From the NCBI GenBank assembly GCA_043754535.1, contig JAYUUN010000005.1:1-63378 (forward strand): DNA of 63,378 nt, read 5' to 3'. Within the stretch, counting starts at the first letter, position 1, and every line of letters begins with the position of its first letter. Shown here in pieces: positions 31,897 to 36,791 of this stretch. Origin of the DNA: Chloroflexota bacterium (lineage in GTDB: Bacteria; Chloroflexota; Chloroflexia; QHBQ01). Below the pieces are notes generated by a model. That model saw nothing but the letters and a program-made list of their open reading frames with translations, was not told the origin of the DNA and did no database searches. A program made the position numbers and the translations under genes.

Positions 31897-32625
31897 ATGA
31901 GCCAGCCCACCGCCGACAGTCAGCACAGCCGCGTCGTGCTGGAACACATCATCTACGCCGAGCTGCTCGACCTTAGCTCCTACCAGTACGAGCAACTGGT
32001 GCGCGAGTTGTTCATGTTCGATGGCTTTGAGACGGCGGTAGTCGGGGTAGAGGGCGACCGCCACATCGAACTGAGTCTGCGGAAGGGCAGCGACACCTTC
32101 ATTGCCCACGCCCAGCGCGGCCACGGCACCGTTCGTCGTGGCGACGTGCTGCGGCTGCGCAAGCCAGTAGAGAAGGCCAGCGTGAGCGGCGGCTATCTCG
32201 TCACCACGCGCAAGGCTCTGGACAGCGAACGGCAGTTGGGTATTGGCAACAACCGCATCGTGCGCCTGATCGACGGCAACGACCTGGTGGCTGGGGTCGC
32301 CCGCTTCGCCAGAGCAAGTATGAGCATCAGCCGCGCCGCCGACCTCGCCCTGCAAGGGGATGACTATCGGATGCTGCAATGGCTCAGCCGCCACCACTAC
32401 GGCGAGTCTGCCCTTGCCCCCAACCAGGCCCGCGCCCTGACCGCAACCAGTGGGGCGGCCAGCAAGCCAATCCGACGGGCCAGGCTCGCCCCCAGCGCAA
32501 GCCCGCCGCTAACCCTAGACCCCACAATCCAGCAGCCGGGCCGCATCAGCGACCGTGCCGCCCTGCTCGCCGCTGCGCTCGTCGTCGCCCTCATCCTGCT
32601 CGTCGGCTGGCTGCTGCTGCATTGA
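31897..32625 (+). CDS. Mrr-like restriction endonuclease domain (degenerate) with C-terminal TM helix
   Basis: YEQLVRELF...GF, GD..IEL, G.LVTT, LIDG..L; catalytic D/QxK replaced by E/HAQR. Confidence 0.7.
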   Translation: MSQPTADSQHSRVVLEHIIYAELLDLSSYQYEQLVRELFMFDGFETAVVGVEGDRHIELSLRKGSDTFIAHAQRGHGTVRRGDVLRLRKPVEKASVSGGYLVTTRKALDSERQLGIGNNRIVRLIDGNDLVAGVARFARASMSISRAADLALQGDDYRMLQWLSRHHYGESALAPNQARALTATSGAASKPIRRARLAPSASPPLTLDPTIQQPGRISDRAALLAAALVVALILLVGWLLLH

Positions 32626-32658: not shown

Positions 32659-33312
32659 GTGGCGATGGCAACAGGTGACAGCCCCGATGCCCAGCTACTG
32701 GGGCGCATCATGCAGCTTGACCCGGTAGACTTCGAGGAGATGGTCGCTGGTCTATTCGAGATGGAGGGCTTTGTGGCCCAGAGTACACCCCGCTCTGGCG
32801 ACGGCGGCGTAGACCTCTACCTCCAGCGCGGCAATCTGACCGCTATCGTGCAGTGCAAACGCCTCAACAGCACGGTTGGCGAACCTACAGTCCGCGATCT
32901 CTACGGCACTATGCTGCACGTGGGGGCGCAAGGGGCGTTCCTGGTCACCACCGGCGGCATCTCAGAGCCAGCCCGCCGCTTCGCTGCTGGCAAGCCGATC
33001 AAGCTGTTCGACGGTCGCTACTTGCTGCGCTGGCTGCACCAGCACGAGGGCGAAATCCGCAGCGACCCCACCGCCCGCCAACCCGCGCCCGCCCGCCCGC
33101 CAACGACGGCTGCGCTCCCGCCTGCTAGCCGCGCCCGCCCGCCCGCCAATCTGCCCCCGCCTCTCCCCCGCCAGTCCGCTGGCAGCCCGCCCAGGCCGCA
33201 AGATGCTGGTTACCAGCGGGCTAGCAGCCAGCAGGCCGCCCTGCAAACCGCCGCCGTCTTCGGGCTGCTGCTGGTCATTGGTGTGCTGATCTACCTGATT
33301 GTGCGGAGTTGA
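32659..33312 (+). CDS. Mrr-like (type IV) restriction endonuclease with C-terminal TM helix
   Basis: FEEMVAGLF, SGDGGVDL, IVQCKR, VRDLYG, FLVTTG, LFDG; Pro-rich linker, then hydrophobic C-terminus. Confidence 0.85.
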   Translation: MAMATGDSPDAQLLGRIMQLDPVDFEEMVAGLFEMEGFVAQSTPRSGDGGVDLYLQRGNLTAIVQCKRLNSTVGEPTVRDLYGTMLHVGAQGAFLVTTGGISEPARRFAAGKPIKLFDGRYLLRWLHQHEGEIRSDPTARQPAPARPPTTAALPPASRARPPANLPPPLPRQSAGSPPRPQDAGYQRASSQQAALQTAAVFGLLLVIGVLIYLIVRS

Positions 33313-33603: not shown

Positions 33604-33903
33604 GATGGTCTCCTCCGCTTCCAGTTGAACCTTCTGCCCTTATAATACCCCGCCCAGCCCAGATAGTTCCGTTAACCACTTTACAGACTAGTGTAAAGTT
33701 CTTGACACAGCCGCCCCGCCGCCCACCGTCAGTAAGGTGGCGGTAAGGTAAGGCCGCTAGCTGCCAGCACCCCCTGTTGCAGCCCCAGCCAAGTTAGCTT
33801 ATAATAGGCACAGCGGGGCATGGACGAGCGTACCGTGTGCCACCCCCCGACCTACATTCGCCGCTGCCCTTGCAGCCTAACTAAATAAGAAGGAGTGCGC
33901 GCC

Positions 33904-35082
33904 TTGAACAAGTTGAAGGTTATCCGTCAGAAGAAAGGGTTGACCACCGGCCAACTCGCCGCCCGCGCCAGCATCCCCACCCGCCTGATCAGCGACTACG
34001 AGGAGGGCCACCAGGCCATCCCCCTGCCCCATGCTCGCCTGCTAGCAAAGGCTCTCTGGGTTAAGGTCGAGGACATCATCCCACCCAACCAGCCGCCCGT
34101 CCCTCCGCCCAGTAGCCTGGCGGTCGCTCCCGGTTCGCCGCCACCACCAGCAGTATTGCCCAGTCAGGGCGGCGAGCAACCGACAGAGCAGCAGGGTGCG
34201 CAGCAGAGCGCAGCCGCCAATGGCGATCCGCAATCCAGCCCCCCCCGCGACTACCAGGGTAGCTACCAGGGTGGCAGCAGTGGCGGCTACCAGGGTGGCG
34301 GCGGCGGCGGCTATCAACGCAGCAGCGGCGGCTACCAGGGTGGCTTCTCCAGCGGCCCCCGCCCGCCCCGTCCCCCCCTGCGCGAACCCCAACCGCCCCA
34401 GCCGCCCCGCCCCAAGCAAGAGCCGATCATCCTGCCCGCTACCGAGGGCCAGATTACCGAGATACTGCGCCAGGCCAACCGCGTCGGCATGGAGCCAGAA
34501 GCGGTGGCAACTGAGGTGGGCAAGTCGCTAACCGAGCTTGACCGTGCTGCTGCCCGCCAGTGGATTCGCACCATGCGCGAGCGCGCCGCCAACCTGACTA
34601 GCGAGCAGCGCAGTTCGCCCGACACCGCCCGCCTGCCCGAAGACCGCGAACCGCAGTACCTTGAGCAGCAGCGCAAGGCTGGCGCAATCTTCAGCTTCAC
34701 CCTGTTCGACGGCAGCATCTTCACCGGCCCGCTCAAGCTGTTCAGCCCCTACACCATCGTGCTGCACGGCGAAGACGATAAGGATATCGTGCTGCGTAAG
34801 TTGGCGATCGCCTACTACCAACAGATCGGCTCCGACCTGCACAGTGCAGAGTTGGCGAAGACCGAGGACGGCAAGTACCCTGAACCGGGCCACCACCACA
34901 AGGGCGAGGTCGAGCCACCGAGCGCACCCGCTGCCGAGAGCAGCCTGGCCGAGGATGGGCAGCCCGGCTTCTTCGGCCCCGACAGCCACGAGCAGCGCGA
35001 CCTGGACGAGGACAAGCGCGACGACGTGGCCGACGCACCTGGTGAGGAGCCGCTGCCAGTGGTGAAGGGAGCGCAAGCATGA
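33904..35082 (+). CDS. XRE-HTH plus G/Y/Q/P-rich disordered linker plus Hfq/Sm-like domain
   Basis: LKVIRQKKGLT..QLA......ISDYE.G HTH; C-terminal segment aligns by eye with Hfq Sm1/Sm2; TTG start behind AAGGAG. Confidence 0.75.
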   Translation: MNKLKVIRQKKGLTTGQLAARASIPTRLISDYEEGHQAIPLPHARLLAKALWVKVEDIIPPNQPPVPPPSSLAVAPGSPPPPAVLPSQGGEQPTEQQGAQQSAAANGDPQSSPPRDYQGSYQGGSSGGYQGGGGGGYQRSSGGYQGGFSSGPRPPRPPLREPQPPQPPRPKQEPIILPATEGQITEILRQANRVGMEPEAVATEVGKSLTELDRAAARQWIRTMRERAANLTSEQRSSPDTARLPEDREPQYLEQQRKAGAIFSFTLFDGSIFTGPLKLFSPYTIVLHGEDDKDIVLRKLAIAYYQQIGSDLHSAELAKTEDGKYPEPGHHHKGEVEPPSAPAAESSLAEDGQPGFFGPDSHEQRDLDEDKRDDVADAPGEEPLPVVKGAQA

Positions 35083-35477
35083 GCCTGGCCGACCACCTCA
35101 AGTTTTTGCGCGCTCGCAAAGGGGGCGTAACCCCCATCGAGATCGAAGCAGCCACTGGCATCAGCCTGCACGACCTCAACTATCTGGAAATCAAGCATCG
35201 CCAGGTGGGTGAGGATGATGAGCTGCTGGCGAAGCTGGCCGCCTTCTACGCCGTGCCACTGGCCGAGTTGCAGTGGCACCGCGACCGCTATCGCAAGAAG
35301 CTGACCGCCTACCTCTACGAACGCAGCGAGAGCGGTGACGAGGTTCACCTTACCTTGCAGAACCGCCATACCATCAGCGGCCCCCTGCTCTGGTGGGATC
35401 GCGCCGTCATCGCCGTCGAGCAGGTAGGAGCGCACCCCATCCTAGTCGAGCGACACTTCATCATAGACTGGCAGTAA
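35079..35477 (+). CDS. XRE-HTH plus Hfq/Sm-like domain protein
   Basis: LADHLKFLR...IEAATGIS....YLE; VHLTLQN...SG.LLWWD..VI.V...ILVERHFI; ATGA overlap with the previous gene. Confidence 0.7.
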   Translation: MSLADHLKFLRARKGGVTPIEIEAATGISLHDLNYLEIKHRQVGEDDELLAKLAAFYAVPLAELQWHRDRYRKKLTAYLYERSESGDEVHLTLQNRHTISGPLLWWDRAVIAVEQVGAHPILVERHFIIDWQ

Positions 35478-35579
35478 CTATACTCCCACCCTGCTCCCCT
35501 TACCAGGGGGCGGCGGGGGAGCGGAAGAAGGTAGCTCCACCCGCGTGTGGTAGGACAGGAACGGAAGAAGGCAACCGCA

Positions 35580-36791
35580 ATGGCGATCAAGGACGACAAG
35601 GCGCAGCCTGCACGGGCGATGACTCAGCCGTTTGAGGGGATGCAGAGTTTCACCCACGACGAGTTGGCCGAGTGCCTCTCCTTCCTGCGGCGCATGAACA
35701 GCCAGATCAGCGGCGATCTTATCCGCCCTGCCCTCGACCGCGACACGCGGCGGCGGCTGGACGAGGAGCTTGAGCGCAATGAGACCTGGGCTGCCGAGAT
35801 CGCCGCCCGCCTCAGCCTGATGCCCGCCAGCCCCACCGCCCCCGCTGTCACCCGCCGCCTTGAACGGCTGCCGCTAGAGGCCGAGGTAGTCTGCAAGGCG
35901 TGTGGCGCGCACAACCGCATCAGCGCACGCTTCTGCACTGCCTGCGGCCAAACCCTGCCTGGCGAGGGCAAAGAGCGGCCAACAGTGCAGCTTGCCATCC
36001 GCATCGTGCATGGCGAACTCAGCGACGTGGGCGTAGTGCGCCGCAACAACGAGGACTCGATCTTCAGCCGCGAACTGGAGTTGCCGAAATCGCTGGGCGG
36101 CGGGCGCGGCTGGCTGGGCCTGGTCGCCGACGGCATGGGCGGGGCCAGTGCGGGCGAGGTCGCCAGCGGCATGACGGTGGAGCTAGCCCCCGCCTACGTG
36201 TTGGAGCGGGTTAGCAGCCTGCAAGCGGAGGGCGTAGAAGCTGTCTTGCGCGAGGGGCTAGAGGCTGCCAACCGCGCCGTCTTCCAGCGCGCCCGCGCCA
36301 TCGCCGGGCAGCGCGGCATGGGGACGACCGCCACCATGCTGCTGCTCGCCCCTGGCCTTGAACGCTGCTGGCTAGCCCACATCGGCGACAGTCGTGCCTA
36401 CCTGCTCAACCGCCTCGGCATCACAATGAAGGGGGCGAGAGCGCGCAATATCGTGCAACTAACCACTGACCACAGCGTAGTCGCCCGCCTGATCGAACTG
36501 GGCCAGCTAACCCCAGAGGAGGCGGCCAAGTCGCCCCACCGCAGCGTCCTCTACCGCTCGCTCGGCACCGAGCCGACCACCGAAGTTGATACTTGCAGCC
36601 AGCAGTTGCAGCCGGGCGACCGCTTGCTGATCTGCTCCGACGGCCTCAACGCCCACCTGGCCGACCCAGACATCGCGGGCATTGTTCTCCGCAGCCCCGA
36701 CCCACAAGAAGCCTGCGCCCGCCTGGTCGCCGAGACTAAGAAGCGCGGTGCGATAGACAATGTGAGTGTAGAGTTGTTCGCGCTGGAGTAG
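35580..36791 (+). CDS. PP2C-family Ser/Thr phosphatase with zinc ribbon
   Basis: CKACG..N....FCTACG; RRNNED, VADGMGG, GMGTT, HIGDSRAY, CSDGL, DNVS. Confidence 0.92.
   Translation: MAIKDDKAQPARAMTQPFEGMQSFTHDELAECLSFLRRMNSQISGDLIRPALDRDTRRRLDEELERNETWAAEIAARLSLMPASPTAPAVTRRLERLPLEAEVVCKACGAHNRISARFCTACGQTLPGEGKERPTVQLAIRIVHGELSDVGVVRRNNEDSIFSRELELPKSLGGGRGWLGLVADGMGGASAGEVASGMTVELAPAYVLERVSSLQAEGVEAVLREGLEAANRAVFQRARAIAGQRGMGTTATMLLLAPGLERCWLAHIGDSRAYLLNRLGITMKGARARNIVQLTTDHSVVARLIELGQLTPEEAAKSPHRSVLYRSLGTEPTTEVDTCSQQLQPGDRLLICSDGLNAHLADPDIAGIVLRSPDPQEACARLVAETKKRGAIDNVSVELFALE

Follow-up and report, generated by a model that had tools for sequence, protein, structure and literature searches.

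The RNA chaperone Hfq is regarded as a homohexamer that stands alone, and to our knowledge the Chloroflexota are among the phyla in which no Hfq has been found. Proteins of this family are described in the accessible part of PMC6561178 as stand-alone, about 70-100 amino acids long and usually carrying an N-terminal extension of four residues only. The subject here is a pair of adjacent genes in a stretch of 63,378 nucleotides (nt) from a Chloroflexota bacterium of the class Chloroflexia (QHBQ01; assembly GCA_043754535.1, contig JAYUUN010000005.1, positions 1 to 63,378 of the forward strand), referred to below as the window. A first-pass annotation of this DNA had proposed that both genes encode an XRE-type helix-turn-helix (HTH) together with an Hfq-family Sm domain, and this architecture is borne out: the gene 1 HTH scores over the Pfam HTH_3 cut-off, the gene 2 model has the Hfq fold, and profiles of both find Hfq significantly. 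The reading favored below, at a probability of about 60%, is that the two proteins form an obligate hetero-oligomeric DNA-binding complex on an Hfq-type scaffold.

Relationships with Hfq were examined with the Pfam families PF17209 (Hfq) and PF21979 (Hfq_1, cyanobacterial-type), for which the gathering cut-off is 27 bits, and with profiles of the two genes. Profile A1 has four rows of gene 2; A3 has 27 rows, consisting of the window gene 2, three relatives from the first search and 23 near-full-length sequences out of 113 matches, with fragments and HTH-only sequences left out; and A5 is made of 12 cropped gene 1 Sm modules (the window copy, four orthologues from genome loci and seven stretches of stored proteins). 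When A5 is compared with PDB, the top 36 matches are all Hfq (E 2.6e-5 to 0.011), and Hfq is also the leading non-HTH family for A1 (6gwk, E 1.1e-4). The window copies of gene 1 and gene 2 alike stay below the 27-bit cut-off: gene 1 reaches 13.6 bits with Pfam Hfq as a whole protein (E 0.054) and 18.1 bits as a cropped domain (E 0.0021), and gene 2 reaches 22.9 bits with Hfq_1 (E 9.3e-5), with a further match to the NCBIfam model Hfq_rel_Cyano (E 2.3e-4). Among the orthologues of gene 1, that of genome G331 scores 29.7 bits, above the Pfam Hfq cut-off, and those of G185 and G219 score 26.8 bits, or 27.0-27.1 with neighboring stretches included. Pfam Hfq is matched by 10/12 members of A5 at E<=0.1 (best 2.3e-7), and at E<=0.01 members of A3 match Hfq_1 (15/27) and Hfq (6/27). 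By profile comparison, both C-terminal domains are homologous to Hfq at the family level. The peptides that had been singled out by eye for this likeness are both present, YLEQQRKAGAIFSFTLFDGSIFTGPLKLFSPYTIVL...IVLRKLAI as residues 252-302 of gene 1 and YLYERSESGDEVHLTLQNRHTISGPLLWWDRAVIAV...ILVERHFI in gene 2.

The two proteins are also related to each other. In an hhalign comparison of gene 2 (A1) with gene 1 (A2), residues 12-132 of gene 2 align with residues 191-307 of gene 1 at a probability of 94.6%, and the small helical domain of gene 1 (residues 176-240) is paired with the HTH region of gene 2. Thus, gene 1 looks like a gene 2-like module with an extra XRE HTH and a linker in front. 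Judged from this alignment and the layout of the locus, genes 1 and 2 are translationally coupled paralogues.

The fold of gene 2 agrees with the profile searches. In its AlphaFold (AF2) model (mean predicted local distance difference test, pLDDT, of 85), the HTH is made of four helices and the start of a fifth, which continues as helix 61-85 into the Sm helix and is followed by five strands. This is the Sm fold of Hfq, with an N-terminal helix and then five strongly bent strands. The Sm domain (residues 73-132) compares with Hfq entries at VIA Z 9.2-9.8, with a root mean square deviation (rmsd) of 1.5-1.7 Å over 58-59 residues (Z 9.8 at 1.7 Å over 59). A Foldseek comparison with Hfq and LSm had been suggested as a check, and for gene 2 the top PDB matches are indeed Hfq, with a template modeling (TM) score by target of 0.66-0.82 and rmsd of 1.2-1.8 Å over 54-59 columns (TM 0.82 at rmsd 1.5 over 57). 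Designed SH3-like barrels also tie with Hfq in the fold search. The N-terminal part (residues 1-72) resembles XRE-type HTHs, with RodZ at Z 10.2, YmfM at 9.9 and DdrO, SinR and CapH at about 9. No Pfam match at E<=1 is seen for the HTH of the window copy; HTH_31 is matched at E<=0.01 by 9/27 relatives of gene 2, and A1 finds ImmR (7t8i) in PDB at E 6.1e-4.

The N-terminal HTH of gene 1 belongs to the XRE / Cro-C1 type (PF01381 clan) by sequence score and fold alike, as it scores 28.6 bits against an HTH_3 cut-off of 23 over residues 4-54 and resembles CylR2, DdrO, C.AhdI and P22 c2 at Z 10.2-10.7. It is followed by a linker (residues 61-175) with 28 P, 21 G, 16 Q and 14 S among 115 residues. 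The GGYQGG low-complexity repeats and acidic tail that had been noted at first sight are both present. The repeats lie in the linker at residues 112-150 (G15 S8 Y5 Q5), and at the DNA level they correspond to 3.6 tandem copies of a 24-nt unit (34262-34344); the tail spans residues 308-392, with a net charge of -14. The first-pass annotation had also suggested that condensates might form. The GYQ block is gapped in 14/14 other aligned members of the gene 1 family and thus cannot be a core feature; going by this alignment, the GYQ repeats are specific to this lineage. The tail motif RDDVAD is kept among closer relatives of gene 1. The small helical domain has helices at 181-193, 198-205 and 214-229, and residues 176-240 have as their best fold match, a middling one, the C-terminal domain of Red-beta (Z 8.8, rmsd 1.8, 62 aligned). 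In the Sm region the model has a helix at 245-259 and long bent strands at 262-305, with pLDDT dropping from 85 to 69. A search of ESM Atlas with residues 176-312 gave one cluster at 0.75, which is in the chance range (Flag1_repress 15%, Hfq 13%) and was not used. Some orthologues of gene 2 (P0058, P0067, P0069 and L010 from genome G359) have long tails at the C-terminus that are rich in G, R, N, D and P and contain repeats like GGGNFRDN. Taken with the GYQ linker of gene 1, these tails indicate that low-complexity regions recur in the family at differing positions.

The exhaustive search for gene 2 relatives returned 113 representatives at E<=1e-3, 41 at <=1e-10 and 15 at <=1e-30. It also found proteins with four to seven tandem HTHs resembling the N-terminal domain of gene 2, namely P0056 (1002 amino acids), P0061 (703), P0116 (585) and P0093 (516). 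A scan for related loci, using one genome per species and the four-row alignment A1, found 66, all in Chloroflexota metagenome-assembled genomes titled Chloroflexia, Anaerolineae, Anaerolineales, Ardenticatenaceae, Thermoflexales or Roseilinea. In 65/66 loci a separate gene 1-type open reading frame (ORF) immediately precedes gene 2 in the same orientation (Sm module E 2e-17 to 2e-30), and at L093 the gene 1 module is in one open frame with gene 2, with an apparent frameshift further upstream. The ATGA at which the two genes had been said to overlap is found at 35079-35082 (Table 1). A 4-nt overlap was computed in 58/66 loci, and in six others the two genes are separated by 3-65 nt. The remaining two are L060, which was mis-measured, and L093, where a separate upstream ORF is lacking.

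In a sample of 401 Chloroflexota genomes, evenly drawn, full-length gene 2 matches are found in six, with 17 more genomes matching the HTH part only. The gene 1 Sm profile A5 matches the same six genomes, with a single copy in each. A phylum-wide survey of the pair had been called for, and it finds the two genes together in every case, in the same 6/401 genomes and in 66/66 loci (in a shared frame at L093). Pairing of genes 1 and 2 is strict, and the pair is restricted to some Chloroflexota lineages. PF17209 matches five of the 401 genomes at E<=0.01; four of these matches are the HTH-Hfq pair and the fifth is genome G015. No other Hfq-like gene (PF17209) was found in the genome of the window, which is 88.9% complete, or in the five other carriers.

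One prediction of the complex was made, with residues 175-312 of gene 1 and the whole of gene 2, an own alignment for each and three controls. The ipSAE score is 0.70-0.72 (median 0.71) and that of the best control is 0.00. At the ipSAE mark applied, 116/157 solved complexes and 2/215 mismatched pairs pass in the benchmark, counts that apply roughly here as own alignments were used. The runs have at least 69% of contacts in common, with partner pLDDT of at least 78. Confident contacts are made by the last strand of gene 1 (302-309) with strand 118-124 of gene 2, and helix 244-252 of gene 1 takes part as well. The interface so predicted is of the kind by which Hfq and Sm rings close, with strand 4 and strand 5 paired at their edges. 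A contact between the two Sm domains, proposed in the first-pass annotation, is thereby predicted with controls (0.71 against 0.00), and support that is independent of the model comes from the genomes, in strict co-occurrence, adjacency and translational coupling. Together with the HTHs, we infer from this that the two proteins form hetero-oligomers and bind DNA.

In the mechanism proposed, two paralogous proteins would be made together from one transcript, each with an XRE-type HTH head and an Hfq-family Sm domain. The Sm domains would join both into an obligate hetero-oligomer by their edge strands, the last strand of gene 1 lying against strand 4 of gene 2. A ring of alternating subunits would be the likeliest form, although full closure of the ring is put at slightly worse than even odds. 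Gene 1 would contribute the disordered acidic tail and a canonical DNA-binding HTH, tethered through about 115 disordered residues, and the divergent HTH of gene 2 would be fixed rigidly on the helix-bearing (proximal) face of its own Sm domain. The HTH heads would bind DNA and the Sm platform would serve at least as an oligomerization scaffold. The platform may also bind single-stranded nucleic acid through a partly retained Sm2 pocket, comprising R125-H126 of gene 2 and Y283 and K299 of gene 1; binding of RNA or single-stranded DNA (ssDNA) is suggested tentatively. The whole would act as a chromosomal regulator or nucleoid-associated factor in Chloroflexota lineages without an ordinary Hfq.

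Conservation was counted over 67 pairs (Table 1) and mapped to Hfq through HMMER alignments, using positions that we take to be Q8, F42, K56 and H57 of E. coli Hfq. Gene 1 retains the F42-type aromatic residue (Y283) and K56 (K299), and gene 2 retains K56-H57 as R125-H126 within QRHAV. The full proximal-face RNA pocket (Q8, F42, K56 and H57) is found in neither paralogue. As aligned, each paralogue thus has only part of the classical Hfq RNA sites, and what the two retain is in part complementary. Two half-sites may combine into one pocket. A more ambitious version of the proposal would be a hetero-ring of two alternating Hfq-derived paralogues with sequence-specific DNA-binding heads, which would bring a chromosomal site into one particle with a nascent or small RNA, or with ssDNA, and form a composite nucleotide pocket from Y283 and K299 of gene 1 and R125-H126 of gene 2. 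Taken as a whole, this version is considered unlikely.

A number of observations weigh against the favored reading. Three fold searches with the full-length model of gene 1 (Foldseek PDB, VIA) returned no Hfq row for its Sm domain, as the N-terminal HTH filled the result lists, and assignment of the Sm fold to gene 1 therefore comes from the sequence profile and the secondary structure. Solved Hfq hexamers resemble the predicted interface, so the pass of the complex may show likeness and not binding; it does not separate hetero- from homo-oligomers, and it models one of the two interfaces that a closed ring needs. In the gene 2 fold comparison, the DriD WYL domain (Z 9.3, rmsd 1.5, 61 residues) scores on a par with Hfq. 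This tie bears on the idea that the pair is a transcription factor of the PafBC/WYL kind, a heterodimer that would sit on promoters by its HTHs without forming a ring, and in which the Sm-fold domains would sense a ligand such as ssDNA, RNA or a nucleotide. The DriD structure in question is ssDNA-bound, the best-conserved residues of the pair sit in the Sm2 loop (R125-H126, K299), and XRE HTHs usually act as dimers. In the accessible text of PMC6789036, proteins combining an HTH with an Sm-fold domain are a widespread class of bacterial transcription factors, and the paralogues PafB and PafC make up one factor with its ligand site at the Sm2 loop. However, WYL (PF13280) is not matched at E<=1 by gene 1 or gene 2, whereas profiles find Hfq specifically; no WCX-like extension follows the Sm domain; and strand 4 and strand 5 are predicted to pair as they do in rings. 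A factor of the PafBC kind is thus regarded as rather improbable.

Further points on the same side concern nucleic acids. DNA binding by gene 2 is uncertain because its best HTH match is RodZ, whose HTH binds MreB according to the entry title. No family-wide operator or element of the 5' untranslated region (5'-UTR) was found upstream of gene 1 across the family. At the Q8 position gene 1 has an invariant Glu (E249, 67/67) and at the H57 position Leu (L300, 65/67); gene 2 has Gly or Ala at the F42 position and Leu or Phe at the Q8 position; and gene 1 has R-K at the rim positions in the window, against Q/E in most orthologues. A domain fused to the Sm N-terminal helix would cover the proximal face and could block it. 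These losses also tell against a true replacement of Hfq, in which the pair would be mainly a small RNA (sRNA) chaperone for Hfq-less Chloroflexota and the HTH-fold heads would serve RNA binding or contacts between proteins in place of DNA binding. Such a role would fit the carrier genomes, where other Hfq-like genes were not found, as well as the retained Sm2 motif of gene 2 (R 67/67, H 63/67), Y283 and K299 of gene 1, the closeness of the gene 2 HTH to the MreB-binding HTH of RodZ, and, as in Hfq, an Sm domain followed by a disordered acidic tail (gene 1). However, for each of Q8, F42, H57 and the rim positions at least one paralogue has lost the residue, the HTH of gene 1 is a canonical and well-scoring XRE DNA-binding domain, and 395/401 sampled Chloroflexota have neither the pair nor a PF17209 Hfq, so this is not a phylum-wide substitute. 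The probability of an Hfq replacement is judged to be low. With these points counted, the DNA-binding hetero-oligomer is still the reading preferred.

Signals of expression are seen in front of both genes (Table 1). The ORF of gene 1 had been called from GTG 33895. TTG 33904 is the likely start, given that all homologues start with MN(K/R)L and that AAGGAG lies 8 nt upstream; in the alignment of upstream regions, AAGGAG or AGGAG is found at the same place before gene 1 in relatives. Further upstream, TATAAT and an ATTGC-type hexamer align in five relatives (L036, L037, L040, L043 and L049), and the site is a putative promoter of gene 1; the TATAAT box is common to six relatives of Chloroflexia type. 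It is not listed by a consensus scan as its -35 hexamer matches at 3/6 positions only. Folding of 62 gene 1 upstream regions gave a median z of -0.49, with 5/62 below -2. Perfect palindromes or hairpins specific to sub-clades are present 5-30 nt before the Shine-Dalgarno sequence of gene 1 and are candidate operators or 5'-UTR stem-loops. They are of three types, GAGCTCGC..GCGAGCTC, AACCCGA..TCGGGTT and GGGCGATTTTGAAAATCGCCC, and their carriers form three groups (L079, L083, L084, L092, L094, L097, L098; L088, L090, L099, L100; and L057, L063, L064, L066, L085).

The neighbors of the pair vary by lineage. scpB (PF04079, SMC_ScpB, E about 4e-53) immediately precedes gene 1, in the same orientation, in 23/66 loci and also at L006, and was not found in the window. 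This adjacency hints at a link with chromosome organization, or may reflect lineage synteny alone. Together with the lack of defense or phage family matches other than to the generic HTH, it gives the pair a housekeeping-type setting, which speaks for the preferred reading. In the window a PP2C Ser/Thr phosphatase is encoded downstream, which had been suggested to regulate the pair. This suggestion is not supported, as PP2C is adjacent in 1/66 loci only, at L035, which is from a 98%-identical relative. Two adjacent genes with the restriction-endonuclease-like domain Mrr_cat are found upstream. Both encode proteins that contain a P-rich stretch and end in a hydrophobic segment, and for the second there is a match to the PADLOC candidate family PDC-S02 (E 9e-18). 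These genes raise the question of whether the pair is a module of a mobile element, such as a toxin-antitoxin system, a phage repressor pair or a defense regulator. Two small genes overlapping by 4 nt are a typical arrangement for toxin-antitoxin pairs, and the gene 1 HTH has weak matches to models of the capH, RmrA and HipB type. However, the matches in PADLOC and PHROGs cover only the generic HTH of gene 1, with none for gene 2, and a toxin-like domain is found in neither protein. The pair is single-copy and has neighbors that differ by lineage, scpB among them, and Mrr-like genes are not among the 12 commonest neighbor clusters of the other loci, although no search aimed at Mrr-like neighbors was made. 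A mobile module is very improbable.

Table 1. Features of the HTH-Hfq gene pair, its conserved residues and its surroundings. Positions are those of the window; conservation is given as the number of pairs with the residue.
Feature	Position	Strand	Details
Gene 1	33904..35082	+	392 amino acids; HTH, disordered linker, helical domain, Hfq-like Sm domain, acidic tail
Gene 1 residues 1-60, canonical XRE/Cro-C1 HTH	33904..34083	+	Pfam HTH_3 and fold; pLDDT 90-97
Gene 1 residues 61-175, P/G/Q/S-rich disordered linker	34084..34428	+	pLDDT 39-64; composition
Gene 1 residues 176-240, small helical domain at the position of the gene 2 HTH	34429..34623	+	pLDDT about 90
Gene 1 residues 245-307, Hfq-like Sm domain	34636..34824	+	family profile; helix then strands
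Gene 1 residues 308-392, disordered acidic tail	34825..35079	+	pLDDT 42-54
Gene 2	35079..35477	+	132 amino acids; divergent XRE-like HTH (residues 1-70), Hfq-like Sm domain (73-132)
ATGA stop/start overlap of genes 1 and 2	35079..35082	+	read from sequence; suggests translational coupling
Shine-Dalgarno AAGGAG of gene 1	33890..33895	+	8 nt before TTG 33904
Shine-Dalgarno GAAGGGAG of gene 2	35064..35071	+	within the 3' end of gene 1; 7 nt before ATG 35079
Promoter-like TTGCAG - 17 nt - TATAAT upstream of gene 1	33777..33805	+	read from sequence
Gene 1 conserved residues			E249 67/67, Y252 66/67, G275 66/67, Y283 65/67 (+2 F), K299 67/67, L300 65/67, Y305 67/67
Gene 2 conserved residues, N-terminal half			M1-S2-L3 67/67, R11-A12 67/67, E37 67/67, R72 67/67
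Gene 2 conserved residues, Sm domain			G101 67/67, W106 59/67, D107 63/67, R125 67/67, H126 63/67, W131 67/67
Mrr_cat gene, first	31897-32625	+	E 2.4e-10
Mrr_cat gene, second	32659-33312	+	E 1.2e-29
PP2C Ser/Thr phosphatase (Stp1/IreP-like)	35547-36791	+	E 4e-59; N-terminal zinc ribbon, residues 113-138
Loci with scpB upstream			L051, L052, L058-L060, L062, L073, L078, L079, L081, L083, L084, L088, L090-L094, L096-L100; L006

Genome G015 (92% complete, 8% contamination) carries a different, shorter fusion of an XRE HTH to an Hfq-like domain, in two copies (L033 on G015:C432 and L034 on G015:C354) with an Sm2-like YYHAV. It also has a stand-alone Hfq-like ORF (L032 on G015:C79), an open frame of about 90 amino acids with VVYKGAL. 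The loci of G015 are the only PF17209 matches outside the pair in the 401-genome sample.

No papers on an HTH-Hfq fusion, on this gene pair or on Hfq in Chloroflexota were found in a literature search with thin coverage of subscription journals. The pair is apparently unstudied. Automatic annotation has come across members of the family: that of JGI names some gene 2 relatives 'sRNA-binding regulator protein Hfq', and a cluster in ESM Atlas is auto-named 'Hfq related/Helix-turn-helix'. The statement in the first-pass annotation that the architecture had not been described thus stands as far as a paper on the pair is concerned, and has to be qualified in that automatic annotations already name Hfq and that, according to the accessible part of PMC6789036, a class of proteins with an HTH and an Sm fold is known (WYL). 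Overall, what was observed in that annotation is confirmed and its interpretation is partly supported.

Hfq/Sm domains fused to XRE HTHs as an obligate unit of two paralogues, across several Chloroflexota classes, would be a new use of the Sm scaffold in bacteria. If a mixed ring does form, it would be a bacterial parallel to the eukaryotic hetero-Sm rings, and their first bacterial counterpart. If the pair binds DNA, the Hfq fold would be linked to transcription or nucleoid organization, and the position after scpB in 23/66 loci hints at the nucleoid. A hetero-ring with DNA-binding heads, if real, would couple recognition of transcription sites to the handling of RNA.

The pair resembles Hfq in the sequence homology of both C-terminal domains, the N-terminal helix and bent strands of the gene 2 fold, the Sm2-like motifs QRHAV (gene 2) and KLAIAYY (gene 1), and the predicted strand 4/strand 5 interface. 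The acidic C-terminal tip of Hfq docks on the basic rim, competes with RNA and gates RNA binding, in the portion of PMC6561178 that is accessible, and the disordered acidic tail that follows the Sm domain of gene 1 may be compared with it. By analogy, this invites the idea that the tail acts like the Hfq tip. In contrast to Hfq, a stand-alone homohexamer, the pair consists of two different paralogues that are always paired, with 60-240 residues fused before the Sm helix, and RNA-binding residues of the proximal face, rim and distal face are only partly kept.

The eukaryotic Sm/LSm hetero-heptamers are rings of different paralogous Sm subunits, as is proposed for the pair. Some eukaryotic Sm/LSm subunits have low-complexity G-rich tails; in the pair, the gene 1 linker with its GYQ repeats is comparable, as are the tails rich in G, R and N on some orthologues of gene 2. 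However, Sm/LSm proteins do not carry an HTH, and their profile similarity to the pair is weak (SmD2, E 0.2 in the PDB profile search).

The WYL factors (PafBC, DriD and BrxR/CapW type) share with the pair an HTH head and an Sm-fold domain in one chain. The HTH of PafBC is a winged HTH, whereas those of the pair are XRE-type. The pair also differs from WYL factors in having no WYL sequence match and no WCX domain, in being closer in sequence to Hfq, and in its predicted ring-type pairing. PafB and PafC are themselves paralogues that act as one factor, with functional residues in the Sm2 loop, as far as the accessible text of PMC6789036 goes. By analogy with this arrangement, the WYL/PafBC class is the closest functional analogue of the pair.

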